Origin: an uncultured bacterium
Lineage (GTDB): Bacteria > Oederibacteriota > JAAXVQ01
NCBI GenBank assembly: GCA_964604705.1
Contig: CAZSAP010000001.1
Location: forward strand, 363,500 to 427,499
DNA: 64,000 nt
Reading direction: 5' to 3'
The translations under genes and the position numbers were made by a program. Below, in pieces: positions 19,820 through 48,372 of the stretch (position 1 is its first letter; each line of letters begins with the position of its first letter). The notes below the pieces were generated by a model. The model saw nothing but the letters and a program-made list of their open reading frames with translations, was not told the origin of the DNA and ran no database searches.

Positions 19820-19898
19820 TGCATTCCTCCTGGTAATGTTCAGCCGATGCGCCTAAACATCGGTGACTATATCTACAGCCAACGTCCAGCCCTTATAT

Positions 19899-21865: not shown

Positions 21866-21925
21866 TTTAACTACAACTTCGAAATTATGATAAAAATCAT
21901 TACGCGAATCAAAGGAGCTACACAA

Positions 21926-23248: not shown

Positions 23249-23321
23249 CAACTCCCCCTCACTCCCCCTCTTTACCAAAAAGGGGGGACGGGGGGCGTTA
23301 TTCCACGAAAGGAATATTTCC

Positions 23322-23663
23322 ATGAAAAAGATTGAAGCCTTTATTCAACCCGAACAATTCGAGAGTGTTAAGAAAGAGCTTTTTGCCGCTCAGGTCTTTA
23401 AAATGAGCGTTTCCCAAGTGCGCGGATGTGGCCAACAAAAAGGCTATACCGAAAGTTTTCGGGGACAAATCGTAGAGATAAATCTCTTGCCCAAAACCAA
23501 GATCGAAATTGCCGTTAATGAAGATTTCGTACAACCCACCATTGACGCCATTATCCGAGGGGCGCGGACCGGTAATATCGGCGATGGCAAAATTTTCGTG
23601 ACGGAATTGCTGCAATGCATTCGCGTCCGCACCGGAGAGACCGGTCACGACGCCATTGGTTAA
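23322..23663 (+). CDS. glnK: Nitrogen regulatory protein P-II, copy 1
   Basis: MKKIEAFIQPEQFESVKKELF...RTGETGHDAIG. 113 aa, AAGGA RBS, immediately downstream of amtB1. Confidence 0.88.
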   Translation: MKKIEAFIQPEQFESVKKELFAAQVFKMSVSQVRGCGQQKGYTESFRGQIVEINLLPKTKIEIAVNEDFVQPTIDAIIRGARTGNIGDGKIFVTELLQCIRVRTGETGHDAIG

Positions 23664-23933
23664 TTGCTCCCCAAGAAAATCGCATCAACCTCCAACCTTC
23701 AAACAACAATGTCGCGATTCCCTTCTGAGGGATCGCCTAATTTAAAAAATACATTTATGAATTAATTATATAATTCGATACACAATTGAAATAATAACAA
23801 ATATGATTTTTGGTCTTTTTTAAAAAAAAAATTTCATCCCACAAAAAAACTCCCCGTGTCTATCCTTTAATTTCAAGACTTTACATCAAGATCCTTTACC
23901 CCGGCTTGTAATAAACACTACCATCCTTTTCCA

Positions 23934-23951
23934 TTGGCATCCATCTTGCAT
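23934..23951 (+). promoter_or_regulatory. Sigma-54 (-24/-12) promoter upstream of the porin gene
   Basis: TTGGCAT-CCATC-TTGCA: GG at 23936-37 and GC at 23948-49, about 140 nt upstream of the ATG at 24094. Confidence 0.55.
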
Positions 23952-24093
23952 TAGTCCTAGGCAAATGGAAATAACCCACGGTTAATGACTATTGGGTAGG
24001 AAAGGAGCTGGCTCGCTATGAAACCCACTAAGGCAAAGATTTAACGACAGATCTACCGAGTGCGTTCAAATAAAAAAACACAAGGAGAATATC

Positions 24094-25170: not shown

Positions 25171-25245
25171 CAAACCGTTTCTTCGATTTAAGCACGAAAA
25201 CCACTTGAACGAATGGGCGTTTAAGCATACAATTATCCCTTCAAA

Positions 25246-25285
25246 CCCCTGTCCGTGATTGCTGCGGACAGGGGTTTAATTTTAA
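25246..25285 (+). terminator. Rho-independent terminator of the porin gene
   Basis: cccctgtccg-tgattgctg-cggacagggg, a perfect 10-bp stem, followed by tttaatttt. Confidence 0.7.
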
Positions 25286-25313
25286 ATCCGTAAAAGAAGG
25301 ATAGTAAACGTCC

Positions 25314-27287: not shown

Positions 27288-27353
27288 CATACCTTGGGGA
27301 CAAGGCATTCCTTGCCCTACCATTAACTAACGGTTTTCGCGGAGCTATACACC

Positions 27354-28724
27354 ATGACGTCCATAGCCGAGTATTGGTCCAGTTTAAGCGCCGGCAAGGT
27401 GCTATTAAACATTTTTCCCTTCGCCTTGTTGTTACTGCTTATCGCCGTTATGCCACTGTGGAACTCGGTCGCCCATTGGTGGGAAAAAAACACCAACAAA
27501 TTAATCGTCGCACTTGTTTGTGGAAGCGCCGGGGTTCTTTTGTATGTAATCCCAACCCACGACGGCGCCCATCTTCTAAATACCGTTTTGGAGTATGCGG
27601 CGTTTATCAGCCTCTTGGCCGCACTTTTCATTGTCAGCAGCGGCATCGTTATTTCCGGTGCGTTTGCAGGTTTCCCCTGGATCAATACACTGTTTCTAGG
27701 CATCGGCGCCTTGTTGGCCAGTTTACTGGGCACAACCGGCGCCAGCATGCTCTTGATTCGCCCCCTTATCCGAGCCAATCGCCTGCGCAAACATAAAACC
27801 CACATTATCGTTTTCTTTATTTTTATCGTTAGCAATTGCGGCGGACTCTTAACCCCCCTCGGCGACCCCCCTTTATATCTCGGTTTTTTGCGCGGAGTTC
27901 CTTTTTTCTGGACCCTCCAACTCTTCCCCGAGTGGTTGGTAACCAACTTTCTGTTGCTGGTGGTTTTCCATTTCCTGGATGAACGGTATTTTTTCAAGGA
28001 AGAACTCGCCACTAAAAACGAATTGGCTCAAGAAATCGCCAATGCTGAAAAACCACTGCATATTCGCGGAAAACGCAATTTCATTTATCTCGCCGCGGTT
28101 CTCGCCACTGTGCTTTTATCCGGTTCGGTGTTACCCTCTGTCTTGCACGCGTGGCTGACTCCCGAACACGCCGAACATTGGGCCAAGGTCGCCCAAATCA
28201 TCCTTTTGGGTAGCATTGCCTGGTTTTCTTTCCGCAACACACCGTCCTCCATTCATGAACACAATCATTTTAGTTCTGCCCCGATTGTCGAAGTCGCAGT
28301 CTTGTTCTTGGGTATTTTCGGAGCCATGCTCCCAGCCTTGGCCGTGTTGGAACATTCCGCCCCGCGACTTCCCATTGACCAAGCTTGGCACTATTTTTGG
28401 CTTACCGGACTCCTGAGCAGCTTTTTGGATAATGCCCCGACATATATGTCTTTTGCAGCCTTGGCTGCCGGTAAATCGAACCTCAATGCTGAGCACCTTG
28501 GAGCCTTGGCGGCCCAGGCACCCAATTTGTTAAAAGCCATTGCCACAGGCGCTGTGTTTATGGGCGCCAACACCTACATTGGCAACGGCCCCAATTTCAT
28601 GGTCAAATCCATTGCCGAACATGCGCACATTAAAATGCCCTCTTTTGGCGGTTACATGCTCTGGTCCTTCGCTGTACTTATTCCTATTTTCTTCATTAAC
28701 ACGCTTATTTTTTTCAAACCTTAA
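27354..28724 (+). CDS. ArsB/NhaD-superfamily ion transporter (NhaD/arsenite-permease-like)
   Basis: 456 aa polytopic membrane protein. Motifs GGLLTPLGDPPL and FLDNAPTYMSF are typical of the ArsB/NhaD/CitMHS permease fold. Confidence 0.6.
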   Translation: MTSIAEYWSSLSAGKVLLNIFPFALLLLLIAVMPLWNSVAHWWEKNTNKLIVALVCGSAGVLLYVIPTHDGAHLLNTVLEYAAFISLLAALFIVSSGIVISGAFAGFPWINTLFLGIGALLASLLGTTGASMLLIRPLIRANRLRKHKTHIIVFFIFIVSNCGGLLTPLGDPPLYLGFLRGVPFFWTLQLFPEWLVTNFLLLVVFHFLDERYFFKEELATKNELAQEIANAEKPLHIRGKRNFIYLAAVLATVLLSGSVLPSVLHAWLTPEHAEHWAKVAQIILLGSIAWFSFRNTPSSIHEHNHFSSAPIVEVAVLFLGIFGAMLPALAVLEHSAPRLPIDQAWHYFWLTGLLSSFLDNAPTYMSFAALAAGKSNLNAEHLGALAAQAPNLLKAIATGAVFMGANTYIGNGPNFMVKSIAEHAHIKMPSFGGYMLWSFAVLIPIFFINTLIFFKP

Positions 28725-28875
28725 TCCCCCGACCCTTCTTACTTTCGTTTACAAATTATAACCAAATTGTATTTATTTATATTTTTACTTCTTATTTGTA
28801 TTTTATTTCATAATTACAACTAAAATGTCATACCGCTTTTTCCTGTATTTAAAGGTTTTTCAGCCTTCTTGTGAC

Positions 28876-28893
28876 TTGGCACAGCCTTTGCTT
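28876..28893 (+). promoter_or_regulatory. Sigma-54 (-24/-12) promoter of amtB2-glnK2
   Basis: cTTGGCAC-AGCCT-TTGCTt: TGGCAC at 28877-82 and TTGC at 28888-91. This is a perfect consensus, about 85 nt upstream of the ATG at 28978. Confidence 0.7.
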
Positions 28894-28977
28894 TATATGG
28901 AGCAGTTGAATAGGCAAGGGTGTCAACCGTCAACGATGAGACGACACATCATCGTAAATACGAAAGGAGTGGTTCTC

Positions 28978-30306
28978 ATGTTTAAAGACATACTGGTACG
29001 TTGGTTCAAGAAGTGGGGATTGCAAGCAGGTGCACTAACGCTTTTGGGATTGCCTTCGGTGGTCTCAGCCGCCGAAGGGGTTCCGCTTAACACAGGGGAT
29101 ACAGCCTTTGTTATGGCGTCCTCGGGTTTGGTCATGCTCATGACGCCGGCCTTGGGATTGTTTTACGGAGGCATGGTGCGCCAAAAAAACGTCCTTGCCA
29201 CCATCATGCAAAGTTTCATTGTACTCGGCTTGATCAGTGTCCAATGGGCACTCTTTGGCTACTCGCTGGCTTTCGGTCCTGACCACGGACATCTCATTGG
29301 CGGACTCGACTTTCTCGGACTTAACGGAGTAGGTCAAACACCCAACGCCGACTATGCGGCGACCATACCCCATCAAGTATTCATGGTATTCCAAGCTATG
29401 TTCGCGGTTATCACGCCGGCGCTCATCAGCGGAGCCTTTGCCGAACGCGTTAAGTTTTCCAGTTTTCTAGTCTTTATTCTGCTTTGGTCAACGTTCATCT
29501 ACGACCCCTTGGCACATTGGGTATGGGGTGTGGGTGGCTGGTTGCGCAACTTAGGTGCCTTGGATTTTGCCGGCGGTACGGTAGTGCACATCGCCTCCGG
29601 GTCGGCAGCTTTGGTGATGGCATTGTATCTCGGCAAGCGTCGGGGTTACCCCAAAGCCTCGATCATGCCACATAACATGACCATGGTCTTGATCGGAACA
29701 GCCTTGCTTTGGTTTGGTTGGTTCGGTTTCAATGCGGGTTCCGCCCTCTCGGCCAATGGTTTGGCGGGTACGGCGTTTATTGTGACGAACTTAGCCGCGG
29801 CCGCAGCAATGCTGTCCTGGGCGTTTGTGGAGTGGATTGTGCGCAAGAAACCCACCGCATTGGGCGCCGCTTCAGGTGCCGTCGCCGGTTTGGTTGCCAT
29901 CACACCGGCATCGGGTTTTGTTGGTCCCATGGATGCCATTATCATCGGTTTGCTGGTATCCCCCATCTGTTTTGGGGCCATTCAGATCAAGAACAAGCTC
30001 GGGTACGATGATTCATTGGATGCCTTCGGCGTGCACGGCGTAGGTGGAACCTGGGGCGCCATTGCCACCGGATTGTTTGCCAATGTTTCAATCAACTCAG
30101 CAGGCGCCAACGGTTTGTTCTACGGCAACCCCAAGCTTCTTGGGATTCAAGCGGTTGCGGTTGTGGCCACCGCCGTCTTCTCGATGTTGGGAACATACAT
30201 TTTGGTGTTCTTGGTGGATAAGGTCATGGGCATGCGGGTAGCAGAACACGAGGAACAAATCGGTCTGGATTTAACCCAACACGGTGAAGCCGGATATCAC
30301 ATGTAA
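28978..30306 (+). CDS. amtB: Ammonium transporter (Amt family), copy 2
   Basis: ATG at 28978 with AAGGAG 8 nt upstream (the track ORF starts at 28825). Paralog of 21926..23248 with the same C-terminal ...[12 protein letters not shown]. Confidence 0.88.
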
Positions 30307-30780: not shown

Positions 30781-31270
30781 AGGTATTTAATTTCAGGGCC
30801 AGAAAAATCCCCGCATGCTGATGTTCGTTGTAACGGGCCACGGGTTTGAAGCCATAGCGTTCAAACATAACAAGCGCGGATTTCTGTTCGTGGTGGAGCG
30901 CCACCAAAACTTCAAAATACTCCGCCTTACGGGCAAAGGTCAGAGCTTGATCAACCAACGCTTTCCCCCACTTACGTTTGCGAAATTCCGGCATGACGTA
31001 AAGCCTGCGTAACTCACATGTTTTTTTGGCCAAGGGCATGACCCCAACCATCCCAACCGCATGCGGTTGGCCCAAGGTTCGCACCAACCAGATCGATCCT
31101 CGCGGCGGCGCATAGATGTTCAGGGGCTGGGTGATGTCCTGATCCAGGGCATGAAACTCCGGAACCATATCCAATTCCTGAAAATACGTTTTCGTGAGTT
31201 TTATAAATTCCGACAGATTCTCGGGCGAAAGCACTTCCAATTTAAATTCCGGATTTTGCATGTTAGGCAT
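30779..31270 (-). CDS. GNAT-family N-acetyltransferase
   Basis: 163 aa. Acetyl-CoA-binding motif RRLYVMPEFRKRKWGKALV (the R/Q-x-x-G-x-G/A region). Confidence 0.75.
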   Translation of the reverse strand: MPNMQNPEFKLEVLSPENLSEFIKLTKTYFQELDMVPEFHALDQDITQPLNIYAPPRGSIWLVRTLGQPHAVGMVGVMPLAKKTCELRRLYVMPEFRKRKWGKALVDQALTFARKAEYFEVLVALHHEQKSALVMFERYGFKPVARYNEHQHAGIFLALKLNT

Positions 31271-32531
31271 TTCCCTTCTGTCGTGACATAAATGTGCGTA
31301 GGGTGCGAATCCGTTCCACCAGGGGTGGATGCGAGTAATGAAAGGCCGCGTACCAGGGATGTGGGTGCAAATTACTGAGGTTGTCTTTAAACAAACGAAT
31401 CAGCGCATCGGCCAGGGCGTCCGGGTCCCGGGTTATCTCTGCGGCAAACGCATCGGCTTCCCGTTCGTGCTTCCGGCTAAAATAGCAGCTTATGGGTTCG
31501 AAAAAAAAGGCGAGCACCGACCCGATGAAGAGCAGCCCCACCACATGGGCATAAAACGATCCGTGGTGCAGATGAAAGATGTCCGAGATCCAAGATGCAC
31601 GCAAGCCCCAGAAAGCGGCGTAGCACACACCCAAGGCTACGATTTCAGTAATCACCAAACGCTGCAAAATATGTTTCTTTTTCCAATGCCCCACTTCGTG
31701 CGCCAAGACTGCCAAGAGTTCGCGGGGAGCGGTTTGTTGGAGCAAGGTATCGAATAAGACAATGCGTTTCACCGGGCCAATGCCCGTAAAATAGGCATTG
31801 GTATGCTTGCTACGTTTGGAGGCATCGCTTTCAAACACACGGCTGACGCGCAAACCCGCCTTGGCCATCAAATCACGAATCGCCTCCACCAGTTCCGGTT
31901 GTTCCACAGGTTTAAATTTATTAAACAGCGGCTCAATAACATACGGTGATAGCAGCAGCATAATCAGCGAAAAAACAAAGAAGAAAACCCACACCCAGAG
32001 CCACCAGGTCTCAGGGAAACGTTGGATCAGGATCAAGCCGCCACCCAGCAGCACACCCATCAGTACCGAAGACAACACCAATGACTTTATGGTATCGGTT
32101 ACCCAAAGCCACGGTGTCATGGTGTTGAAACCAAAGCGTTGTTCAAGCCGGAAGGTCTGATACCACCCCAACGGAAGCCCAATCATGGTTGTCAAGATCA
32201 CCAGCCCCAGAAAATAAAAGATCCCTTGAACGACAAACGGCAACGCAGGAAAAGACATCCAGACATTGTACGCATCCCAAAGTCCACTGTAAAAAAAGAC
32301 GACGACACTGGCTGCGTTGAAAAGCGCAACCACGTTGGCAAACTTCATTTTGGCCAGAGTATAGGCTTGTGTCTTGGCCAAAAGCTCTGTCTGAACCACG
32401 GCCTCAAACCCTTCTGGAACGACCATCCCATAGCGTTCAAGATGCTTCCGGTTGAGATATTCCAGGACATACTCCACGGCCACCGTCAGAAGAAAGAACC
32501 CAAGTATCCACCACCGCCACGTTTCCAGCAT
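31263..32531 (-). CDS. M48-family zinc metalloprotease (Ste24/HtpX-like), membrane-embedded
   Basis: 422 aa. N-terminal TM helices. HEXXH in LAHEVGHWKKKH. Confidence 0.8.
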   Translation of the reverse strand: MLETWRWWILGFFLLTVAVEYVLEYLNRKHLERYGMVVPEGFEAVVQTELLAKTQAYTLAKMKFANVVALFNAASVVVFFYSGLWDAYNVWMSFPALPFVVQGIFYFLGLVILTTMIGLPLGWYQTFRLEQRFGFNTMTPWLWVTDTIKSLVLSSVLMGVLLGGGLILIQRFPETWWLWVWVFFFVFSLIMLLLSPYVIEPLFNKFKPVEQPELVEAIRDLMAKAGLRVSRVFESDASKRSKHTNAYFTGIGPVKRIVLFDTLLQQTAPRELLAVLAHEVGHWKKKHILQRLVITEIVALGVCYAAFWGLRASWISDIFHLHHGSFYAHVVGLLFIGSVLAFFFEPISCYFSRKHEREADAFAAEITRDPDALADALIRLFKDNLSNLHPHPWYAAFHYSHPPLVERIRTLRTFMSRQKGNA

Positions 32532-32616
32532 ACCACCTCAGAATCGAATCGTTTGCACGGGGTGGATCTCACCCACATGTTTCAGACTTATGTTTACGCT
32601 TGCCTAGGATCAAACG

Positions 32617-33399
32617 CTACCGGTCCTTTTTGGTCGGAGCCGGCGGAATGCTCTCACGCCCCAACTTCCTAAACCCTAAGTACCAATCCAAATTATAGTA
32701 GTCCTTCCCAGCGTTGTCTTGACGTTCTTTGGCAGACGAAAGCGTGTTCGGTACGGGAACAATCACATCTTCGCCCGGTTGCCAATCCGAAGGGGTGGAT
32801 ACCGAGTACGCATCGGCGGTTTGCAGCGCCACAATCATACGTTTTATTTCCATGAAATTCCTGCCCATGGAGGCCGGGTAAAACAACATGCTCCGGATAC
32901 GGCCTTTGGGATCCACAATAAAGAGCGCACTGTAAGTTCGCCCCTCGTCGGCCACACTGGGAAACAGGCCGTATTTTTTCAGAATCTCTATTTTGGGATC
33001 GGCCACCAACGGCATGGCGACATTGACCCCCTTCATGTTCTTATACACGATTTTCTCTTGCAAGGAACGCAGCCACGAGATGTGACTGGTCAAGCTGTCT
33101 CCGGAAATGCCCACCCAATCACAGTTAATGGATTTGAATTCCGGAGCCATGGCCGCAATGGTCAGCACTTCCGTGGTCGCCACCGGAGTAAAATCCGCCG
33201 AGTAGCTGAACAGAACGACCCATTTATTTTTGTAATCCTTAGGAAATGTAATCTTACCCTGTGTGGTATCGGCCGTAAACGCCGGGGCATCTTCCCCAAT
33301 CATCGGTGCGCGCAGCAGTTCTTCAGCCCAAAGACTCGAAGCGCCAAGGCCTAAAAACACACTCGCCAAGATTAAACGTCGGATACTTAATTTCAGCAT
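32617..33399 (-). CDS. Secreted peroxiredoxin-6-like (1-Cys Prx fold) protein with Ala in place of the peroxidatic Cys
   Basis: Start ATG at 33399 (GGGGGAG RBS). Signal peptide MLKLSIRRLILASVFLGLGASSLWA. Motif WVVLFSYSADFTPVATTEVLTIAAMAPEF corresponds to Prx6 DFTPVCTTE. The Ala codon is GCG at 33178-33180. Confidence 0.7.
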   Translation of the reverse strand: MLKLSIRRLILASVFLGLGASSLWAEELLRAPMIGEDAPAFTADTTQGKITFPKDYKNKWVVLFSYSADFTPVATTEVLTIAAMAPEFKSINCDWVGISGDSLTSHISWLRSLQEKIVYKNMKGVNVAMPLVADPKIEILKKYGLFPSVADEGRTYSALFIVDPKGRIRSMLFYPASMGRNFMEIKRMIVALQTADAYSVSTPSDWQPGEDVIVPVPNTLSSAKERQDNAGKDYYNLDWYLGFRKLGRESIPPAPTKKDR

Positions 33400-33518
33400 A
33401 CTCCCCCCCAAAAAGCCCTTTCGCACAAATGCGATGATTAGTTTAATTATCGGCACAGGTTTTGTCAAGCTGTGCTACAAAAACGATTTTACTGTTGCTT
33501 TGACCAAATACCACTCCT

Positions 33519-36553: not shown

Positions 36554-39493
36554 ATGTTTCACTTCGTACATAAAATCCTGCGTCTGTTTTCCCTTTTATG
36601 TCTGCTCGTCTTCACATCCGCCGTATCTCAGGCGACGACTTATACGGTCACCTCCGATGCCGACAGCGGCGCCGGTTCCTTACGTGATCAGTTGACCTTG
36701 GCCAACACCAACCCCGGAGCGGATATCATTGATTTTTCCGGTCCCATGTACATTACCGTAACCAGCGGGGCCTTGGCCGTCACCGACCGGGTCCGCCTCG
36801 ACGGCGGTGGCCAGGTGGTGCTTGCCAGTAACGGAAGCCTCATTGCACTGCGTCTGGTGGGAAGCAGCCAAGGCAGCACGATTACCGGCATGGCGTTTGT
36901 CAAGGCCACGGCCATGTACACGCCGGCGTTGGAAATCGCCACCAACAACAACCGTCTTTACGGCTGCCGCATCGGCACCGACTGGAACGACTCCCCAGGC
37001 TTGGGCAGCTATTATGGCTGCAGCGTCTATGGGTCGTTCAATGACATCGGCGGCTCCACTCCGGCCGAACGCAATGTTTTTGCGAACAACAGCATTGGCC
37101 TGCAAACCATGAACACCTGGTGTTGCCGCGTTCGCGGGAATTATTTCGGCCTAAATTCCTCAGGCACAGGTGCCCTGGCCAACATCTATGGGATTGTCGC
37201 CGATTACAATACCCGAGCAACATTGTTTGGAGGCGATCGCCTGGCCGGTGAGGGCAACGTGATAAGCGGCAACAGCGCCTACGGTGTTTATATGGACTCC
37301 ACGGCGTTTGGAAACACACTGTGCGGAAACATTGTTGGACTTACACCTGCCATGGACGCCCGCATAGCCAACCAGTTCGGCATTAGCGTCTACGGAGCCC
37401 GGGGCAACGCCTTCGGTTTGCCGGGCAGCGGTTATGAAAACATTATTTGCGGGAGCTCGGCAAATGGGTTGGAGCTCACGGGAAATGTAGGTTCCGAACC
37501 CGTTCCGCGCTACAACACCATCCGCAACAACTATATCGGTATCACCCCCAACGGAACCGTTTTCGCCAACGATCGCGGAATCTATTTAAACCACGTGGAA
37601 TACACCCTGATCGGAGGCGATTACCTGCTGCAACAGGGCAACCTTATCTCCGGCAATTACAACGAGGGGATTTACTTGTGCGACGGCAACAACAATTCCG
37701 TATGCGGCAATTCCATTGGCACCGATCCTACGGGCAACAACAGCGTACCCAATTCCTACGGGATCTATCTGGGCGGAGGCAGCGGCAACATCCTGGGCAA
37801 CACCTCCACCGGCAGCAGCGTGCTCGGCAACTTAATCTCAGGCAACAATTATCATGGTATATATCTGGATAAATACGTTTTCTCAGCGCCGTTGGTCAAC
37901 AACAGCATAGCCGGCAACCTCATAGGCATCAACCTGGCCAACAACGCGGCCCTGCCCAACGGACGTTCGGGCATCTATGTCAACAATGCAAGTTTTACCC
38001 GTATCGGTGGTCCGGGTGGAGATTTGCAAAACACCATTGCCGGCAATACCCATTACGGCATTGCCGTGGCCAACAGTTCGGATACAACCATCCAAAGCAA
38101 CTACCTTGGAACCGACACTACCGGCACACTGCAAATCAGCAACCAGTTAAACGCAATTCAAATCTCATCGTCCCCACGCACCTTGATCGGCGGCGTGGGC
38201 GGCAACCTCGGGAATCTCATTTGCGGTACCGGAGCCGCAGGCGTGGCCGGCATTTCCCTCAACAACAGCAGCGGCAACACCCTTGCAGGCAATGCCATCG
38301 GCGTGCTTTCCACGGGCGTTCCGGCCTCGCCCAGTTTTACCCATGCTGTTTTTCTGACCAACACCTGCACCGACTCCCTGATCGGCCAACCCACAGGCGG
38401 CCTCGGCAACCTGATGGCCGGCACCACGTACGGCATCACCCTTGGCAACCATACCTGCATTCGAAACTCGTTTTACTCCAACACCGTTTGTGCCTTCGGC
38501 ACCCAGGGTATCCAACTGCTCAGCGGAGCCAATGCCAGTAAAACCGCACCTGTGATTTCCACGGTCGGATTAAGCCTCGCGCAAGGCACGTCCGGCGCCA
38601 ACGACCACATCCAATTGTTCCTCTCCGATCGTGGCGCTGGGGTCAACGGAGGCAGCTTGCGCCTGGTGGGTGAAGGCTCGGCAGACGGCAGCGGCAATTG
38701 GTCCATTGGCGTTTCGGGCCTTCAATACGGCGACTATGTTTCAGCCCTAGCCACGAATGCATCCGGCAGCACTTCCGGCTTTAGCCTGAATTCGGTGGTC
38801 GCCTTGCCTCCGTCTCCCACGCCAAGCCGGACAACCACTTCCACAACCACCCCCACCCCCACGCTCACGGCGACGGTCACACCAACGCCCACAGCCTCCG
38901 CCAGTGCCTCTCCGTCTCCCACAGAAACCCTTACGGCCACAGCCACACCTACGGGCACAGCATCCCCCACGATCACCCCAACCCAAACCCCAACGTCCAC
39001 AGCGACCTTGACCCCAACCATTACCACCACCTACACGGTTTCCTGCACAGCCACGCCCACAAGCACCGTAACCTTCACCTGCACTCCCTCCTCCACCTTC
39101 ACGATCACCCTTACGCTCCCGCCAAGTTTCACGGCCACACATACAACAACACCTTATCCGACTGAAACGGCAACCCCTACGTCTTCCCTCACACCCACCA
39201 TCACCTCCACGCTCACGGCGCAAACTGTAGTACTCTCTCCCTGGGTAGGTACTGCTTTCCCCAATCCCGCACGAGGGCAAGTTAAATTTATTTTACCCGC
39301 GGCCTTGGCCAGCGAAATAACGGTTTACAATCTTTCCGGCGAGCGGATTGCAAGCGTGCGTGAAAACCAAGCTTATACCGAACCCCATATCATCGTCTGG
39401 GATTGTACCGGCATAGCCCCAGGCATCTATGTGGCTGAAGTGAAGGTGGATGGAAAATGCGTCAAACGCATTAAATTTGCATTAGTCAAATAG
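36554..39493 (+). CDS. Secreted CSLREA-motif beta-helix protein with long Thr/Pro linker and T9SS-type C-terminal domain (cargo H; the only plus-strand member)
   Basis: 979 aa. MFHFVHKILRLFSLLCLLVFTSAVSQATTYTVTSDADSGAGSLRDQLTLAN. More than 25 GN..G beta-helix turns. A ~180-aa T/P/S linker. C-terminus ...GIAPGIYVAEVKVDGKCVKRIKFALVK. Confidence 0.8.
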   Translation: MFHFVHKILRLFSLLCLLVFTSAVSQATTYTVTSDADSGAGSLRDQLTLANTNPGADIIDFSGPMYITVTSGALAVTDRVRLDGGGQVVLASNGSLIALRLVGSSQGSTITGMAFVKATAMYTPALEIATNNNRLYGCRIGTDWNDSPGLGSYYGCSVYGSFNDIGGSTPAERNVFANNSIGLQTMNTWCCRVRGNYFGLNSSGTGALANIYGIVADYNTRATLFGGDRLAGEGNVISGNSAYGVYMDSTAFGNTLCGNIVGLTPAMDARIANQFGISVYGARGNAFGLPGSGYENIICGSSANGLELTGNVGSEPVPRYNTIRNNYIGITPNGTVFANDRGIYLNHVEYTLIGGDYLLQQGNLISGNYNEGIYLCDGNNNSVCGNSIGTDPTGNNSVPNSYGIYLGGGSGNILGNTSTGSSVLGNLISGNNYHGIYLDKYVFSAPLVNNSIAGNLIGINLANNAALPNGRSGIYVNNASFTRIGGPGGDLQNTIAGNTHYGIAVANSSDTTIQSNYLGTDTTGTLQISNQLNAIQISSSPRTLIGGVGGNLGNLICGTGAAGVAGISLNNSSGNTLAGNAIGVLSTGVPASPSFTHAVFLTNTCTDSLIGQPTGGLGNLMAGTTYGITLGNHTCIRNSFYSNTVCAFGTQGIQLLSGANASKTAPVISTVGLSLAQGTSGANDHIQLFLSDRGAGVNGGSLRLVGEGSADGSGNWSIGVSGLQYGDYVSALATNASGSTSGFSLNSVVALPPSPTPSRTTTSTTTPTPTLTATVTPTPTASASASPSPTETLTATATPTGTASPTITPTQTPTSTATLTPTITTTYTVSCTATPTSTVTFTCTPSSTFTITLTLPPSFTATHTTTPYPTETATPTSSLTPTITSTLTAQTVVLSPWVGTAFPNPARGQVKFILPAALASEITVYNLSGERIASVRENQAYTEPHIIVWDCTGIAPGIYVAEVKVDGKCVKRIKFALVK

Positions 39494-39569: not shown

Positions 39570-41432
39570 TTGCCCATCTTTGCATCTGGCGGGTTCATGC
39601 TCATCCCTTGGTTCGGCTTGGCCATCTTCGTCCTGGAATTGTTGGTTCGCGTCTTTCAATTCCTTTGGTTGCATCAACACCATCAACTGCCCCAAGGGGT
39701 CTGGGCCCAACTCCCATGGATCCTAGGCGCCGACCTCGGTGCCGCCCTGCTGGTCAGCTTGGTGCTCGATACCCTGCTTCCCTGGCTGCGCCAAAAAACC
39801 GCCCCCGTGTTTCAACGAGTATGGACCTTTCTCCAGTGGAGTGGCTTTGTTCTGCTCTTGATCTTTCTCGGTTTCACCTTTAAGTTCTACGCCTTATTTG
39901 AACGTTTTTTTAATTACGGGCATTGGACCCAAGTGGATCGTCTGTCCGCCTATTGGCGCAACATCTTATCCGAGGCCGATGTTTGGGCGCTGGTGGGAGC
40001 CGTTTTCCTCCTGGGCCTGATGGGACTGACGCACGTGTGCCGGAAGCATATCCCAAAACTCGCTGTCACTCAGCGTACCCGCATCTTGCTGGTGACCGGT
40101 CTCGGCACGTGCCTTTTGCTCACGAACCTTCCTGGGCACCACTGGCCGCAACACCAAGACTGGCGCTCCTTGGACGAAAATCCACTCCTTATTTTAAGCA
40201 CCTTTCTTCGTCCCGACACCGCACCGCAAGCCCCTATCCGGCACTGGACCAAAGCGCCAGCCGCTCCGGGGGTGGCATCAAAACACCTTGCCCCACTTCC
40301 CATGGCGCAGCGCCAAAACCTCAATGTCGTGATCCTCTTGCTCGAATCCATGACACCGGAATACGCCGGACTCACACGCCCCGAGAACCGCGCGTATTTG
40401 CCCAACCTCACACAATTGGCAAGTGAATCCTTGGTCTTCCCCAATCACTATTGCCAAGAGCCGGCGTCTCTAAAAAGCTTGTACACCCTCCTTACCGGGC
40501 GGTATTCGTATCAAACCCGGAACTGGAAAGCCTTCATTGCCCAGGCACAATCGGATCCATCTTTGGCCGAACGCCTTAAAACCCATGGCTACGCCACCGC
40601 CTTTTTGACCTCGGCCAATGGGCGCACTTATTCCCAAAACAATTTCCTGCGCCCGCGTTTCGATGTGCTCCAAGACATGACCGTACTCAAGCAACAGCAA
40701 CCCAAGCTCCAGCTCTTCTCCGATTGTGTGGATGATCGCGCCCTGATCGGGGCTTTGGATCAATACGTAAAGGACCAGGCCGGCCGAAAATTCTTTGTCC
40801 TGCTCAGCCCCTACTTCCCCCACCACCCCTATCCCATTCCCGACCTGAAATTCAAAGTCACTCCGGGTAAAACACCGTATCAACGATACCAAAATTCCCT
40901 GCATTTCACCGACGATCTCGTTGGAAAACTCATCGCGGTTTTAAACCGGCAAGGCGTCTTGGACAATACTTTGTTGGTGGTGGTTTCGGATCATGGAGAA
41001 GCGTTTCATCAACATCCCGGAAATTATCTGCATTCTATCTTTTTATATGAAGAAAACGTGCGGACGGTTTTCATGGTACGCCAACCAAGATTGCTTCGAC
41101 CCGGAATTGACCCAAGGCTCACGTCGCATACTGACATAGCCCCCACCCTTCTTGATCTGCTGGGTTTTCCGGATTCGGATTTTGATGGTATGAGTCTTTT
41201 GGACTCTGCGACTGCACTTCGTCCGGTCTTTTTTTATACGGCGTTTAACGACACCCGCTTGGGATTGCGCGAGCAAGCCTGGAAATACATCCTCACCCGG
41301 GAGCACGGTTTGGAAGAACTCTACGACCTTAGCACCGATCCGGGTGAACGCACCAACCTGGCGCCTCGTTATCCTGAGCGTTGCGCGCGTTACCGTAAAG
41401 AACTGGATGCACTCGAGGAAAAAATCCGCTAA
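39570..41432 (+). CDS. Membrane-anchored sulfatase-family protein (LTA-synthase/phosphoglycerol-transferase-like)
   Basis: 620 aa. N-terminal multi-TM region and a C-terminal alkaline-phosphatase-superfamily domain with VVVSDHGEAF. Confidence 0.7.
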   Translation: MPIFASGGFMLIPWFGLAIFVLELLVRVFQFLWLHQHHQLPQGVWAQLPWILGADLGAALLVSLVLDTLLPWLRQKTAPVFQRVWTFLQWSGFVLLLIFLGFTFKFYALFERFFNYGHWTQVDRLSAYWRNILSEADVWALVGAVFLLGLMGLTHVCRKHIPKLAVTQRTRILLVTGLGTCLLLTNLPGHHWPQHQDWRSLDENPLLILSTFLRPDTAPQAPIRHWTKAPAAPGVASKHLAPLPMAQRQNLNVVILLLESMTPEYAGLTRPENRAYLPNLTQLASESLVFPNHYCQEPASLKSLYTLLTGRYSYQTRNWKAFIAQAQSDPSLAERLKTHGYATAFLTSANGRTYSQNNFLRPRFDVLQDMTVLKQQQPKLQLFSDCVDDRALIGALDQYVKDQAGRKFFVLLSPYFPHHPYPIPDLKFKVTPGKTPYQRYQNSLHFTDDLVGKLIAVLNRQGVLDNTLLVVVSDHGEAFHQHPGNYLHSIFLYEENVRTVFMVRQPRLLRPGIDPRLTSHTDIAPTLLDLLGFPDSDFDGMSLLDSATALRPVFFYTAFNDTRLGLREQAWKYILTREHGLEELYDLSTDPGERTNLAPRYPERCARYRKELDALEEKIR

Positions 41433-43444: not shown

Positions 43445-43933
43445 ATGACGTTGTCCGATCCACTTGAGGCCCCTATTCGTCATGCGCTCGCCCCACTTCC
43501 GTCCGGTGTGACCTTGCTGGTAACCGTAGGCAATTCCCTGCGTTCCGACGATGCGGTGGGGCCTTACCTTGCCGATCGTCTAGCACTGCGTCATCCGGGA
43601 TACCGCCTGCTCCATGTCGGCCATCAACCCGAATCCATGCTCGAAGATGCACCCCCACTCAACCCTAAAAAAATCATTATTCTGGATGCGGCCGAATTCC
43701 AGGGGGTGCCTGGCGAGATCCGCCTCCTCCCGCCCGAAGCGATTCCCCAAAACGCACTTGGCACCCATTCACTTTCCTTAAGCACCCTGGCGCTTACGCT
43801 GCGCCAAACGCTCGGCGCCGAGGTCCACTTTGTAGGCATTCAACCCGTATGTTTTGCTTGGGGTGAAACGCTTTCCCCAGCCGTCCAAGCCAGTGCCGAT
43901 CGCTTGTTGCGCTTTTTCAACGACCTTGTCTAA
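43445..43933 (+). CDS. Hydrogenase maturation endopeptidase (HyaD/HybD/HycI family)
   Basis: 162 aa. LLVTVGNSLRSDDAVGPYLADRL matches the GN-x-L-x-x-DDG-x-G family motif. No hydrogenase gene is in the window. Confidence 0.7.
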   Translation: MTLSDPLEAPIRHALAPLPSGVTLLVTVGNSLRSDDAVGPYLADRLALRHPGYRLLHVGHQPESMLEDAPPLNPKKIIILDAAEFQGVPGEIRLLPPEAIPQNALGTHSLSLSTLALTLRQTLGAEVHFVGIQPVCFAWGETLSPAVQASADRLLRFFNDLV

Positions 43934-43969
43934 CACCCCACTTCCCCGCCCTGTCCGGATGTTTAAATG

Positions 43970-43998
43970 CTTGACAGGCAGCCGACTTCTACGCTAGA
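43970..43998 (+). promoter_or_regulatory. Sigma-70-type promoter for the ilv leader
   Basis: TTGACA (43970-75), then an 18-nt spacer, then TAGACT (43994-99). The leader ATG is 30 nt downstream. Confidence 0.45.
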
Positions 43999-44030
43999 CT
44001 ACGTCCAATTCTTTGGATCGAGGATCCCTA

Positions 44031-44117
44031 ATGCAGCGCAAACTTACGGCGACAACTCAAGTAGTATCCTGCTTACTGGTAGTAGTAAGCGTAGCCGTAG
44101 TAGCGTACGCGCCATAG
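44031..44117 (+). CDS. ilvBN leader peptide (28 aa, Val/Leu-rich) for transcription attenuation
   Basis: AGGAT RBS then ATG. MQRKLTATTQVVSCLLVVVSVAVVAYAP with 9 Val among 17 consecutive residues. It is followed by a terminator hairpin and ilvB. Confidence 0.7.
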   Translation: MQRKLTATTQVVSCLLVVVSVAVVAYAP

Positions 44118-44148
44118 GGGATACTGAAGAGACCAAAATTTCTCAAAA

Positions 44149-44185
44149 CCCCTGCTGGTGCGAACCGGCGGGGGTTTTGCTTTTT
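44149..44185 (+). terminator. Attenuator terminator between the ilv leader and ilvB
   Basis: cccctgctgg-tgcgaa-ccggcggggg (10-bp stem with 2 G-U pairs) then ttttgcttttt. Alternative pairing of gccatagggg (44111-20, overlapping the leader stop) with the 5' arm gives a plausible antiterminator. Confidence 0.65.
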
Positions 44186-44237
44186 CCACCCCTTTTCCGG
44201 TTCCAGTGGTTTAGGGGTATCTGAAAGGAGTTTGACC

Positions 44238-45917
44238 ATGTTTCAAGAAACAGGTGCCAATCTTATTGTCCGTCTGCTCGAACGCCAAGGAATCCGGATC
44301 GTCACCGGCATTCCCGGCGGCATGAACCTTCCGCTTTATGACGCGTTTTCCAAAAGTACGGTCATCAAACATGTCTTGGCCCGGCATGAACAAGGGGCGG
44401 GATTCATGGCCCAAGGCATGACCCGTTCCACGGGCAAACCCGCAGTCTGCCTGGCCACTTCCGGCCCTGGGGCTACGAACATTCTCACGGCCATTGCCGA
44501 TGCCAAATTGGATTCCATTCCGATCATCTGCATCACCGGCCAAGTGCCAGTGCCTTTGATCGGTACGGACGCGTTTCAAGAAGTCGACACCTACGGCATG
44601 ACGCTTCCCATTACCAAACACAATTTCCTGGTGCGCAATGCCTCCGAGTTGCTCACGGTCATTCCCGACGCCTTCCGCATCGCCCTCTCCGGCCGTCCGG
44701 GACCTGTGCTTATCGATGTGCCGAAGGATGTACAGAATCAAACGGTCTCCTTTGACGCCTGGCCTGAACCCGGGGTTGCGGTCCCCACACCCCAAACCAC
44801 GACCAATGATTTGGCCTTGGCCGCCAAACTGATCAACGAAGCGCAACGCCCCATGTTCTACTTGGGCGGCGGCGTGGTGCATGCCGAAGCCTGGGAGCTG
44901 ATGCGCACCATCGTGGACAAAACCAACATCCCCTCGGTCATGTCGTTGTTGGGTTTGGGCATCTTGCCTTCGGATCACCCGCGTTCGCTGGGCATGCTGG
45001 GCATGCACGGCGCCCGCTACGCCAACTGGGCGTTGGAAGAATGCGACGTGCTGGTGGCCATCGGCAGCCGCTTTGGCGACCGTGCCACGGGCAAAGTCGC
45101 CCAATTTTGTCCTCAGGCCAAAATCATCCACTTTGACATTGACCCGAGCGAGATGGACAAGATCAAGAAAGTCGACCTCTCGATCCTCGGCGATGTGCGC
45201 GACACGTTGAGTGCGTTGCTCCCCAAACTGGAGGCCAATGACCGCACAGCTTGGCTGGCGCGGGTGGCGGCTTTGAAAAAAGAACATCCTTTGTATCCTG
45301 AGGCTGAGAATCTGGATCCGGCAGGCTTGATCCGCACCGTAGGACGTCTGCTCCCGGAAAACGCCATTATCTCCACCGACGTGGGGCAGCATCAAATGTG
45401 GACCGCCCAAAATTATCCCCACCGCCAACCGCGCTGCTGGATGACCTCCGCCGGTTTGGGAACCATGGGGTTCGGCGTGCCCGCGGCCATTGGGGCGGCT
45501 TTGGCTCATCCCGATCGTACGGTGGTAAGCTTTTCAGGGGATGGAAGCTTGTTGATGAACATTCAGGAAATGGCCACCATGGTGGAGGAAGACTTGAATG
45601 TGAAAATCATTCTTTTCGACAATCAAGCCTTAGGCTTGGTCCACCAACAGCAGGACTTGTTTTTTGGCAAACGGTACTTCGCGTCCAACTTTAAATTTAA
45701 GACCGATTTCATTCGCATTGCGCAAGGATTTGGACTGCGCGCCTTGACCTTGAACGGTTCAACCGAACCCGAATTCCTGCTGGAAGAAGCCTTGCGCATG
45801 AAAGGCCCCTTCTTGATTCACGTGCCCATGGATGTGCACGACAAGGTTTTCCCCATGGTTCCACCCGGGGCTGCGAATAAAGACATGATGGGAGGTGACA
45901 CCCATGACCGCGCCTAA
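44238..45917 (+). CDS. ilvB: Acetolactate synthase large subunit
   Basis: ATG at 44238 with AAAGGAG 7 nt upstream. TPP enzyme motifs GIPGG, GPGATN and GSRFGDRATG. Confidence 0.9.
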   Translation: MFQETGANLIVRLLERQGIRIVTGIPGGMNLPLYDAFSKSTVIKHVLARHEQGAGFMAQGMTRSTGKPAVCLATSGPGATNILTAIADAKLDSIPIICITGQVPVPLIGTDAFQEVDTYGMTLPITKHNFLVRNASELLTVIPDAFRIALSGRPGPVLIDVPKDVQNQTVSFDAWPEPGVAVPTPQTTTNDLALAAKLINEAQRPMFYLGGGVVHAEAWELMRTIVDKTNIPSVMSLLGLGILPSDHPRSLGMLGMHGARYANWALEECDVLVAIGSRFGDRATGKVAQFCPQAKIIHFDIDPSEMDKIKKVDLSILGDVRDTLSALLPKLEANDRTAWLARVAALKKEHPLYPEAENLDPAGLIRTVGRLLPENAIISTDVGQHQMWTAQNYPHRQPRCWMTSAGLGTMGFGVPAAIGAALAHPDRTVVSFSGDGSLLMNIQEMATMVEEDLNVKIILFDNQALGLVHQQQDLFFGKRYFASNFKFKTDFIRIAQGFGLRALTLNGSTEPEFLLEEALRMKGPFLIHVPMDVHDKVFPMVPPGAANKDMMGGDTHDRA

Positions 45918-46197
45918 ATCCCAACAAACGGTTTTGGAACTCACAGTCAACAATCATCCGGGCGTTATGTCCCACGTGGTTGGCCTGTTTTCGCGGCGGG
46001 CGTTTAATGTCGAAGGAATCTTATGCATGCCGGTTACGGACACCGACACCAGCCGGATTTGGCTGCTGGTAAACAACGACGAGCGCTTGGAACAATTGAT
46101 CAAGCAATTGGAAAAACTACAGGATGTCAAAGAGGTACGCCCCAGCGGCGCCTCGCATGATGTCTTTGTACGCTTAGAAAACTTGTTTAACCCTTAA
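45895..46197 (+). CDS. ilvN: Acetolactate synthase small (regulatory) subunit, short ACT-domain form
   Basis: QQTVLELTVNNHPGVMSHVVGLFSRRAFNVEGI ACT domain. It overlaps the ilvB stop. The start is GTG at 45895 or ATG at 45904. Confidence 0.8.
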   Translation: MTPMTAPKSQQTVLELTVNNHPGVMSHVVGLFSRRAFNVEGILCMPVTDTDTSRIWLLVNNDERLEQLIKQLEKLQDVKEVRPSGASHDVFVRLENLFNP

Positions 46198-46350: not shown

Positions 46351-46467
46351 ACAAACCTGTTAGACAGCCCCCTTTTTTTCAGCTACAATTCATGAGTTTT
46401 TTAAAATTTCAACCACTGCCTTACGCCGGCTGCACGCGCCTGGCGTAGGCCCGGAGAGGATTCGATC

Positions 46468-48372
46468 ATGAGCCTGTTAAAGAAAATCGGTTGGGGGTTA
46501 CTTTGCCTACTGGGCGCGGGTGCGTTTGCCATGGTCGCCGGGTGGCTCCATCCGGCCGAGAAAGTCAATGCCCTCTGGATCGTCACAGCCGCCGCTTGTT
46601 TTTATGTCATTTCCTACCGATTTTACGCAGCGTTTGTAATGTCCAAGGTGCTTTCCATAGACGACACCCGCATCACTCCGGCCTATCGACTCAACGACGG
46701 CATCGACTACCATCCCACCAACCGCTGGGTCCTTTTCGGACACCACTTCGCGGCCATCGCCGGTGCCGGTCCGTTGATCGGCCCCATGTTGGCGGCCCAA
46801 TTTGGCTATCTTCCCGGCTTCCTCTGGATCCTCATCGGTTCGGTCTTTGCCGGGGCCGTGCACGACACGGTCATCCTGGCCGCGTCGGTTAAGCGCGATG
46901 GGCAGTCACTGGCCCAAATCGCCAAAGCCGAGATCGGCCCGATTGGGGGCGCGGCTGCCTCCCTGGCGGTTATTTTCATCATCATCGTGGCCTTGGCGGG
47001 TTTAGGTCTGGCCGTGGTCAACGCTCTTTCTGAAAGCCCCTGGGGTACGTTCACCATCGCCATCACCATCCCGATTGCTTTTTGCATGGGCATCTATCTA
47101 AAATACCTGCGCCCCGGAAAAGTAGGCGAAGTAAGTGTGATCGGAGTCTTCCTACTTACGGGTGCCGTCATTGCCGGCCATTGGATCCCCGGATCGCCGC
47201 TCGAACCCTACTTCACGCTCTCCCGCAACAGCATGGTCTTGGCCATGGCACTCTATGGACTTTTGGCTTCCATTCTTCCCGTCTGGATGCTGCTCTGCCC
47301 TCGCGACTATCTCTCCACCTATATGAAAATAGGCACGATTGTCCTCTTGGCCATCGGCATTGTGTTCATGGCCCCCCAGGTGCAGATGCCGGCCTTCACA
47401 ACGTTCATTCATGGCGGAGGACCCATCATCCCCGGAAAGCTCTTTCCGTTTATGTTTATCACCATCGCCTGTGGCGCCATATCCGGATTTCACTCACTCA
47501 TCTCTTCAGGCACCACACCCAAGATGATCATGCATGAACGCGAAATTAAGATGATCGGGTTTGGCGCCATGCTGACCGAAGGGTTCGTGGGCATGATGGC
47601 GTTGATCGCAGCCACGATCCTTATTCCCGGCGATTACTTTGCCATCAACACCAAGCTGACGTTCGAACAATTGGCGGCCATGGGATTCCCGGTCAAAGAG
47701 ATCATGCAGCTCTCACAAGAAATCGGAGTCAATGTCGTAGGACGCCCGGGCGGGGCGGTCTCGCTGGCGGTGGGCATGGCCACCATCTTGGACGACATCC
47801 CCGGCATGAAAGGACTCATCGCCTACTGGTACAATTTCGCCCTTATGTTTGAAGCCCTGTTTATTCTAACCACCGTGGACACCGGCACCCGGGTCGCACG
47901 GTTTCTACTCCAGGATATGGGTGGTTATGTATTCAAACCTTTGCGCCAACGTTCCTGGATGCCAGGCATCATTGTCACCAGTCTCATGGTCGTAGTTTCT
48001 TGGGCGTATCTTATTTATTCTGGCAGTGTATCAACCATATGGCCCATGTTTGGAGTAAGCAACCAACTTTTGGCGGCGGTCGCGCTGGGAATCGGCTCGG
48101 TGATCATCATTAAGGAAGGCAAAGGCAAGTATGTCTGGGTCACGTTGCTGCCCATGGCATTTATGTTCGTGACGACCCTTACGGCGTCTTGGGAACTATG
48201 GGGTTTGTTCTTAGGCAAAGCAGCGGCCGCCACGGATCCGAGCGCCGCCCGAACCTTTAAAATCGATGCAGGCTTGGTTGCCCTGATGGCGCTTTTGGCC
48301 ATTGTGGTGCTCATTGATTTGCTGATCAAAGGCATACAAGCATGGAAGACCAAACCCGCCATGCAAGCGTAA
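46468..48372 (+). CDS. cstA: Carbon starvation protein A (peptide/pyruvate transporter family)
   Basis: 634 aa. MSLLKKIGWGLLCLLGAGAFAM...YRFYAAFV is a CstA-typical N-terminus. Confidence 0.88.
   Translation: MSLLKKIGWGLLCLLGAGAFAMVAGWLHPAEKVNALWIVTAAACFYVISYRFYAAFVMSKVLSIDDTRITPAYRLNDGIDYHPTNRWVLFGHHFAAIAGAGPLIGPMLAAQFGYLPGFLWILIGSVFAGAVHDTVILAASVKRDGQSLAQIAKAEIGPIGGAAASLAVIFIIIVALAGLGLAVVNALSESPWGTFTIAITIPIAFCMGIYLKYLRPGKVGEVSVIGVFLLTGAVIAGHWIPGSPLEPYFTLSRNSMVLAMALYGLLASILPVWMLLCPRDYLSTYMKIGTIVLLAIGIVFMAPQVQMPAFTTFIHGGGPIIPGKLFPFMFITIACGAISGFHSLISSGTTPKMIMHEREIKMIGFGAMLTEGFVGMMALIAATILIPGDYFAINTKLTFEQLAAMGFPVKEIMQLSQEIGVNVVGRPGGAVSLAVGMATILDDIPGMKGLIAYWYNFALMFEALFILTTVDTGTRVARFLLQDMGGYVFKPLRQRSWMPGIIVTSLMVVVSWAYLIYSGSVSTIWPMFGVSNQLLAAVALGIGSVIIIKEGKGKYVWVTLLPMAFMFVTTLTASWELWGLFLGKAAAATDPSAARTFKIDAGLVALMALLAIVVLIDLLIKGIQAWKTKPAMQA

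Follow-up and report, generated by a model that had tools for sequence, protein, structure and literature searches.

A probable leader-peptide attenuator of the ivbL type upstream of ilvBN in an uncultured bacterium

The question raised by this locus is whether a short valine-rich open reading frame (ORF), placed just upstream of the biosynthetic genes ilvBN, is a regulatory leader and, if so, of which kind. The locus belongs to a stretch of DNA of 64,000 nucleotides from an uncultured bacterium (the whole stretch is hereafter called the window), in which an intergenic region separates hycI (43445-43933) from ilvB (44238-45917) and contains all the leader elements described below. A previous inspection of the DNA without database searches (the sequence-only reading) had proposed an attenuation leader at this place. 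According to the present analysis, the element is very probably a ribosome-mediated leader-peptide transcription attenuator of an ilvBN operon of the acetohydroxyacid synthase (AHAS) I type, and a homologue, at the RNA level, of the ivbL element of Escherichia coli. In fact, the traits of classical attenuators are found together here: a short ORF with its own ribosome binding site (RBS) between the promoter and ilvB, a cluster of cognate codons and an intrinsic terminator; and, computationally, an antiterminator that excludes the terminator and depends on the position of the ribosome.

The leader and its alternative RNA structures

The elements of the locus, all on the forward strand, are the following.

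43971-44000, + strand: sigma-70-type promoter-like site, made of TTGACA (43971-43976), an 18-nt spacer and TAGACT (43995-44000); consensus scan, 10/12 positions.
44020-44025, + strand: Shine-Dalgarno-like GAGGAU of the leader ORF, 5 nt 5' of the ATG; read from the sequence.
44022-44040, + strand: 5' strand of a predicted protector helix, covering the leader RBS, the AUG and the first codons, with 44104-44124 as its partner; folds of transcripts ending at 44122-44148, with no ribosome.
44031-44117, + strand: ORF of the leader peptide, 28 codons followed by a UAG stop, MQRKLTATTQVVSCLLVVVSVAVVAYAP; translation.
44061-44102, + strand: regulatory codon run, with Val codons 11, 12, 17, 18, 19, 21, 23 and 24 and Leu codons 15 and 16; sequence and translation.
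44071-44090, + strand: local 8-bp hairpin GCUUACUG-GUAG-UAGUAAGC inside the Val run; minimum-free-energy folds.
44108-44120, + strand: 5' strand of the antiterminator, CGCGCCAUAGGGG, which takes in the final two sense codons (GCG CCA; Ala, Pro) together with the UAG stop and GGG; fold of 44031-44163.
44144-44185, + strand: intrinsic terminator with a 16-bp stem and a 4-nt loop (44144-44179), followed by CUUUUU; terminator scan, -28.7 kcal/mol.
44149-44162, + strand: 3' strand of the antiterminator, CCCCUG(C)UGGUGCG, taking up most of the terminator 5' arm and its loop; fold of 44031-44163.
44238-45917, + strand: ilvB, acetolactate synthase large subunit of the AHAS I type; NCBIfam NF006016, 909 bits against a cut-off of 870.
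45895-46197, + strand: ilvN, short (97-100 aa) AHAS I regulatory subunit; NCBIfam NF006036, 153 bits against a cut-off of 128.

Both NCBIfam equivalogs matched by the window genes (NF006016 and NF006036) are also matched by the E. coli-type IlvB and IlvN proteins, hence the assignment of the operon to the AHAS I (ilvBN) type. The start of ilvN overlaps the 3' end of ilvB, and ilvB has a Shine-Dalgarno-like site of its own, AAAGGAG, 7 nt 5' of its ATG. Transcription of the leader would start near 44007; in three close relatives (L082, L083, and L165) TTGACA is accompanied by TAAACT or TAAGAT, with an unchanged distance to the leader ATG, and the position of the window's GAGGAU is occupied in relatives by GAGGUU or AAAGGC. 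The leader ORF ends 26 nt before the terminator and 120 nt before the start of ilvB.

The leader peptide contains eight Val and three Leu in its 28 codons, with six of the Val residues lying within codons 17-24. All eight Val codons are GUA, which is the rarest Val codon in the genes of the window (13.8% of 1220 Val codons in 35 genes), whereas E. coli ivbL uses a mixture of GUG and GUC. This bias could come either from a tuning of the sensitivity or from the constraint imposed by the local hairpin. The same codon is also favoured, as read by eye, in the leaders of L082, L083, and L165. Small ORFs with such a density of Val are scarce: six or more Val within 14 residues are seen in just seven, the leader ORF included, of the 899 ATG-initiated ORFs of 15-60 aa in the window. 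Judged from their coordinates, the other six are apparently located within repetitive coding sequence or antisense to it, and the leader ORF is the sole one seen in an intergenic region (179-310 being unchecked). In addition, the region 44000-44240 folds more stably than its shuffled versions (z = -4.3; 0/200 shuffles as stable). The element exceeds chance expectation because of this z-score, the scarcity of Val-rich small ORFs and the conservation in relatives that is described below.

Two structures compete for the terminator 5' arm. When the transcript is folded up to the terminator loop (44031-44163), an antiterminator of 13 bp with one bulged C is formed, in which 44108-44120 pairs with 44149-44154 and 44156-44162, and the stability of this module (-24.1 kcal/mol) is comparable to that of the terminator (-28.7 kcal/mol). 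The leader's stop codon is embedded in the antiterminator strand, GCGCCAUAGGGG, with the motif GCGCC-N-UAR-GGG. The ribosome was simulated as a 28-nt footprint moved along the leader during folding: all 13 pairs of the antiterminator are kept with the A site at any position from Val11 through Val21, 11 at Val23, eight at Val24 and none at the stop codon, which is the sole placement that abolishes the structure. The hairpin at 44071-44090 is kept in L082 only, the closest relative. A further helix, the protector helix, is predicted in the transcript free of ribosomes, and a closure of the leader ORF resembling it is predicted by single-sequence folds in about 10 of 14 lineages. The N-terminal MQR of the peptide (AUGCAGCGC, 44031-44039), common to L082 and L084, is a predicted partner of the GCGCC...GGGGAU region (44104-44124); this pairing would enclose the entire leader ORF in one large stem-loop.

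The mechanism proposed for the window may be worded as follows. Transcription would begin a few bases 3' of TAGACT, and a ribosome would load on the 28-codon leader. With plentiful Val-tRNA, and probably also Leu-tRNA, this ribosome would reach the UAG at 44115-44117 and its footprint would lie over 44108-44120; once masked, this strand could not pair with the terminator 5' arm, so that the 16-bp terminator would form and the polymerase would halt at the U-tract before ilvB. With scarce Val or Leu, on the other hand, the ribosome would stall in the GUA/Leu run (44061-44102), leaving 44108-44120 exposed for pairing with 44149-44162 once the latter is transcribed; the 13-bp antiterminator would then consume the 5' arm and the loop of the terminator, allowing read-through into ilvBN. 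In a third situation, that of no translation, 44104-44124 would pair back on the RBS and AUG region of the leader through the predicted protector helix, and termination would be favoured.

Every element described by the sequence-only reading is recovered here, with small corrections. This is so for the promoter-like TTGACA-18-TAGACT (43971-44000, 10/12 consensus positions), the leader RBS (as GAGGAU, 44020-44025) and the CUUACU/AGUAAG hairpin inside the Val run, which appears at 44071-44090 in the folds and may have the pause role that was attributed to it. The peptide has indeed 28 codons and is rich in Val, but its translation gives eight Val and not nine; similarly, a terminator with a U-tract is present, but the extent given for it, 44149-44174, was too short for the full 16-bp stem (44144-44179). 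The pairing suggested between the stop-codon region and the terminator 5' arm is real and longer than claimed, since it amounts to 13 bp and includes the terminator loop. Folding had also been put forward there as a check for mutually exclusive terminator and antiterminator structures, and the 13-bp competitor found in 44031-44163 is such a structure.

Conservation, covariation and family membership

Five relatives were recovered by exact-protein look-ups, and a Val/Leu-rich ORF at the equivalent position, together with a near-identical terminator stem, is kept in all five of them. Their leader peptides, in order of decreasing IlvB identity with the window, are listed below.

L082: IlvB identity 87%; leader peptide MQREDTTNLLVSVPRLLAVVSVVVVIFAP.
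L083: IlvB identity 70%; leader peptide MFLKSSTHRQNLSLLLVAGVVLVCPARRRED.
L164: IlvB identity 70%; leader peptide MRRDLTTDSRLWSSHRLLVVVVVRVVDAFAP.
L165: IlvB identity 67%; leader peptide MMRIQYGIAALANVCLALVGVVVVRPSAPVRLKGM.
L084: IlvB identity 62%; leader peptide MQRQQRHNQNSETRPFILNVVVVVRMLAP.

Two of these relatives, L082 and L083, also share with the window the upstream synteny (a sulfatase-like gene, PhoU_div, and PHO4), and both are without hycI at this place yet keep the leader; therefore, the leader travels with ilvB and not with the upstream gene. In L083 (3001-5735) no ilvN was called 3' of ilvB, where a convergent Usp-family gene comes next, and so the small subunit of L083 may be encoded elsewhere or be missing.

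The same layout is found far beyond these relatives. Among the loci fetched from named genomes, which were taken from the IlvB matches listed, Val-run leaders lie 90-150 nt upstream of AHAS I-type ilvB in many lineages, including Enterobacteria (with the annotated IvbL, ...VVVVRVVVVVGNAP), Accumulibacter, Zoogloea, a delta-type proteobacterium, Myxococcales, and Binatia, as well as Verrucomicrobiota, Opitutaceae, Spirochaetia, Leptospiraceae, Treponema, and Fibrobacteres. One of these loci (L099) is 100% identical to the annotated ivbL-ilvB of E. coli. Val-run upstream ORFs occur in 35/41 AHAS I-like loci vs 21/116 other AHAS loci (Fisher p = 2e-14), the latter 21 consisting mostly of ilvGMEDA leaders already known. 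The sequence of the terminator is recognisably alike across lineages, being AAACCCCGCCGGCGCAAACCGGGCGGGGUUU in E. coli and AAAACCCCUGCUGGUGCGAACCGGCGGGGGUUUU in the window. In an alignment read by eye, the stop codon lies inside GCGCC-N-UAR-GGG, aligned with that of the window, in most of 27 leaders, and is placed elsewhere in a few rows, including L083, L165, Opitutaceae, Fibrobacteres, and m54b.

Both helices are supported by compensatory changes in a MAFFT alignment of these 27 leaders, which come from several phyla. The terminator is 86.6% paired, with compensatory changes in 13 of its 16 pairs and an observed score reached by 0/500 shuffles, and its helix is predicted independently by RNAalifold. 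The antiterminator is 76.5% paired vs 33-53% when slid 1-3 columns, a control that is biased in its favour because the full structure was derived from the window sequence. Double changes in the antiterminator include GC to AU and CG to UA, with ACGCC:GGCGU in Leptospira and CACCG:CGGUG in Spirochaetia. When the 3' arm of the terminator is left out, RNAalifold recovers the GCGCC:GGCGC antiterminator helix, and four of its five pairs show compensatory changes.

For a covariance model (R1), 21 leaders from other lineages were used, E. coli-type included, and the window and its five close relatives were left out. The top match of R1 in the 64 kb is 44100-44184 (65.2 bits, E 1e-14), the other terminators of the window scoring at most 23 bits, and the relatives outside the training set (L082, L083, L165, L084, and L164) score 42-63 bits. 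Across 164 loci, R1 matches on the + strand just upstream of AHAS I-type ilvB, with only two marginal matches among the other loci. No match at E <= 0.001 was obtained with R1 at the loci of the enterobacterial IlvL type (L025, L033, L034, L043, L066, L111, L113, L119, and L153). Weak matches of 22-23 bits are seen in the window at 25208-25284 (+), 3' of a porin gene, and at 18339-18392 (-), 3' of glnA; they are taken to be ordinary intrinsic terminators of the AAACCCC...GGGGUUU shape.

Existing family models behave differently. At gathering thresholds, Rfam gave no match in the whole window, and a search of 43900-44300 at E <= 10 gave only sub-threshold matches driven by the terminator (His_leader with 23.9 bits vs 49, and rnk_pseudo with 23.6 vs 55). 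The peptide models PF08049 and NF007579 match neither the window peptide nor three other non-enterobacterial leaders (two from close relatives and one from Binatia) at E <= 10, whereas E. coli IvbL, used as a positive control, scores 72.6 and 78.7 bits; PF08049 and NF007579 cover enterobacterial IvbL peptides only. Blastn gave no match to the leader region in any complete E. coli genome. At present, the ivbL-type element is captured neither by an Rfam family nor, outside the enterics, by a peptide model. Given the R1 match, the covarying helices and the linkage to AHAS I genes, the window element belongs, by its RNA and its operon, to the ivbL attenuator family, while its peptide goes unrecognised by PF08049 and NF007579.

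Peptides ending in Ala-Pro-stop are seen in many phyla (GNAP in E. coli, AYAP in the window, AVAP in Binatia, AIAP in the delta-type proteobacterium, and VDAP in Myxococcales). The Ala-Pro codons GCG-CCN (44109-44117 in the window) are the 5' strand of the covarying GCGCC:GGCGC helix, and because these codons form a covarying antiterminator strand the ending of the peptide looks dictated by RNA pairing. On balance, although with less assurance than for the attenuator of the window itself, we favour the idea that the ivbL attenuator is a single structured RNA family, ancient or horizontally mobile, made up of a leader ORF that a protector helix closes, an antiterminator with the stop codon in it and a terminator. 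This family would have remained physically joined to AHAS I genes in lineages labelled as no fewer than seven major groups, its MQR.../...Ala-Pro-stop ends being dictated by the RNA and GUA tuning the sensitivity in the clade of the window. As labelled, these groups are Gamma- and Betaproteobacteria, Myxococcales and delta-type, Binatia, Verrucomicrobiota, Spirochaetota, Fibrobacteres, and the Firestonebacteria-like lineage.

Known systems and rival explanations

The closest known system is the ivbL-ilvBN operon of E. coli (PF08049, NF007579). As in the window, ivbL lies directly upstream of an AHAS I-type ilvB followed by ilvN; its ORF has about 30 codons, among them Leu codons and a run of Val, with some four codons between the last Val and the stop and an Ala-Pro-UAG end. 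The likeness extends to the RNA, since in both cases GCGCC-N-UAG-GG(G) pairs with the CCCC...GGCGC of the terminator, which has the form AAACCCC..GCCGG.GC...CCGGCGGGGUUU. On the other hand, besides its codon usage, the window differs in that its peptide falls outside PF08049/NF007579, no blastn similarity exists, and the host is probably a Firestonebacteria relative and not an enterobacterium. In E. coli, ilvB is also under the control of cAMP-CRP. The occupancy of the UAG stop of ivbL by the ribosome is known to tip the balance toward termination (PMC5373646).

Another example of the same logic is the leader of the enterobacterial ilvGMEDA operon (IlvL), a 32-codon Val/Ile/Leu-rich leader with a terminator, which was seen upstream of the AHAS II-type control loci; however, it belongs to another AHAS isozyme and operon and is rich in Ile. 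In the actinobacteria Corynebacterium glutamicum, Streptomyces, and Mycobacterium, the ilvBNC leaders reported upstream of ilvB have short ORFs with Ile/Val/Leu runs, which lie before terminators or overlap with them (PMC1262725; PMC11857589), although these leaders serve another AHAS subtype (ilvBNC/ilvBHC operons) under a three-hairpin model. A leader peptide upstream of ilvB has also been reported in Staphylococcus (PMC5794164). In Firmicutes, the T-box and CodY controls of ilv genes reach the same goal, premature termination tied to the supply of branched-chain amino acids, but their sensor is an uncharged tRNA or a protein rather than a translating ribosome, and no T-box was detected in the window.

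In 2010, leader-peptide systems were said to be known only from Proteobacteria and Actinobacteria and had been newly found in Firmicutes (PMC2965389). The sequence-only reading expressed a common view in treating this logic as essentially proteobacterial, with T-boxes or other mechanisms in most other lineages; that statement was too strong and is contradicted by the loci examined, as the same attenuator is found before AHAS I-type ilvB in Verrucomicrobiota, Spirochaetota, Fibrobacteres, Binatia, and Myxococcales. Attenuators reportedly occur in some Bacteroidetes/Chlorobi and Thermotogales too (Vitreschak et al. 2004, FEMS Microbiol Lett 234:357), and there is a further survey by Lopatovskaya et al. 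2010 (Mol Biol 44:128). The remaining proposals of that reading have held up well: its ribosome-stalling logic is backed by the footprint folds, the conserved ORF and terminator, the covariation and the 65 bits of R1; the Val-rich ORF that it proposed to look for upstream of ilvB in relatives is kept in 5/5 of them over 87-62% IlvB identity; and the type IX secretion system (T9SS) sorting tails, together with the synteny with a Firestonebacteria genome, agree with the T9SS-bearing, non-proteobacterial lineage that it suspected.

Several points weigh against the attenuator interpretation. When the candidate regulatory codons in the similar ilvB leader of Streptomyces coelicolor were mutated, that leader showed no response; it did not behave as a classical attenuator and its function is ambiguous (PMC1262725), so an attenuator-like layout is no guarantee of classical attenuation. 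In L164 (419-450), the terminator stem GACCCCUGCUGG...CUGGCGGGGGUC is kept with no U-tract 3' of it (AUGCAUUAAAACC); more generally, the leaders of Myxococcales, Binatia, and L164 have the conserved stem with a weak or absent U-tract, and a simple terminator scan missed those of Myxococcales and Binatia and gave only an unrelated, weaker hairpin in L164. In the window itself, footprints on the last two Val codons mask 2-5 nt of the antiterminator strand, and the complete leader at equilibrium adopts the terminator fold regardless of the ribosome position. The choice between termination and read-through must therefore be kinetic, as it is in classical attenuators, and read-through would depend on this presumed kinetic competition. 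To these points must be added the bias of the slide control and the reliance of the predicted protector helix on single-sequence folds.

Some of these observations would also be accommodated if the leader ORF and the terminator were real and sensed no amino acid, the operon undergoing a constitutive partial termination or being coupled to general translation capacity or to Rho, with the Val codons as a by-product of RNA structure. The Val run GUAGUAGUAAGC doubles in fact as part of a hairpin, both ends of the peptide (MQR... and ...AP-stop) are accounted for by RNA pairing and not by a function of the peptide, and the indifference of the S. coelicolor leader to its codons and the lack of a U-tract in L164 point the same way. 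However, Val runs, often accompanied by Leu, recur across phyla in leaders whose runs have unrelated nucleotides (GUG, GUC or GUA), the hairpin within the Val run is not conserved across leaders, the enriched codons are precisely those for the products of the pathway, and the E. coli homologue of the element is established as a Val/Leu attenuator (PMC5373646). We consider this explanation unlikely.

By its hydrophobicity the peptide could pass for a transmembrane segment, and the terminator lies only 26 nt 3' of its ORF, so that one might think of a small membrane peptide with a function of its own, the hairpin being its terminator or that of hycI and the proximity of ilvB a coincidence. This is very improbable, as the peptide is poorly conserved outside the Val/Leu run and the RNA-constrained ends, the element goes with ilvB rather than with hycI (L082 and L083 keep it without hycI), and the leader's stop codon lies in a covarying antiterminator strand; moreover, the promoter scan gave no second promoter-like site between the terminator and ilvB, and without one a strong terminator before an essential biosynthetic operon would silence ilvBN. 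Least credible of all is a leader RNA acting as a switch that binds a ligand, a tRNA or a protein (T-box, riboswitch, or CodY/Lrp type), with an incidental ORF. T-boxes or protein repressors do control the branched-chain amino acid genes of many non-proteobacterial lineages (PMC2965389; PMC5794164), but Rfam has nothing at threshold in the window, its local matches being sub-threshold and driven by the terminator, and the leaders lack a conserved aptamer-like structured domain; conservation is seen instead in the ORF, in where its stop codon falls and in the two alternative helices. The ribosome-mediated, ivbL-type attenuator is thus the reading that we retain, at the strength given at the outset.

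Host, surroundings and significance

The host is probably a relative of Firestonebacteria and not a proteobacterium, a placement that is tentative and follows from a three-gene synteny at 49-61% identity. The syntenic sulfatase-like membrane protein has few homologues, and the nearest named one, with 49% identity, belongs to a Candidatus Firestonebacteria metagenome-assembled genome (GCA_013335425.1), whose contig JAAXVQ010000183.1 carries an M48 peptidase, AhpC, and the sulfatase-like gene. The M48 peptidase and the AhpC-like peroxiredoxin are each 61% identical between this genome and the window (31263-33468, 39570-41432; L166); in the window they are adjacent, as in that genome, and the sulfatase-like gene follows on the same strand, separated from AhpC by three further genes. 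A homologue search with GlnA was phylogenetically uninformative, since the named matches came from many phyla, all at 73-78% identity. T9SS type A sorting tails are present in several proteins of the window, including three of the large secreted ones (7659-9578, 16082-18202, and 36554-39493). Large secreted proteins form a run at 4746-18202 (-) and at 36554-39493; the protein at 7659-9578 also has PARCEL repeats and that at 36554-39493 a long Thr/Pro-rich linker, and the antisense frames of linkers of this type yield spurious Val-rich small ORFs.

Other features of the surroundings deserve mention. A cstA-like pyruvate/peptide transporter gene (46361-48372), with its own promoter-like TAGACA-17-TACAAT, follows ilvBN, and this adjacency may be functional because the substrate of AHAS is pyruvate. 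The motif AGGGGAUACUGAAGAG stands right after the leader stop (44116-44131) and again, as AGGGGUAUCUGAAAGGAG, right before the start of ilvB (44213-44230); the latter copy is paired with ACCCCU (44188-44193) in the minimum-free-energy fold, and the repeat was not seen in the sequence of L082, as read by eye. Finally, 18398-30306 is a nitrogen-assimilation neighbourhood, with glnA, a NifA-like sigma-54 activator, two ammonium transporter genes, an OmpL-like porin, and a CitMHS_2 transporter.

The understanding of how attenuation works is left unchanged by this element, which is real but ordinary. Its value lies elsewhere. The annotation of the genome gains a leader peptide gene and an attenuator, a gene that automated pipelines would miss because the curated IvbL models match enterobacterial peptides only. 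The leaders also offer a clean case of peptide termini shaped by RNA structure. For the family, the comparative set brings together one recognisably homologous attenuator RNA before the AHAS I genes of several further phyla, a possible seed for an Rfam family; and for the organism, the prediction is that ilvBN would be switched on by the limitation of Val or Leu.

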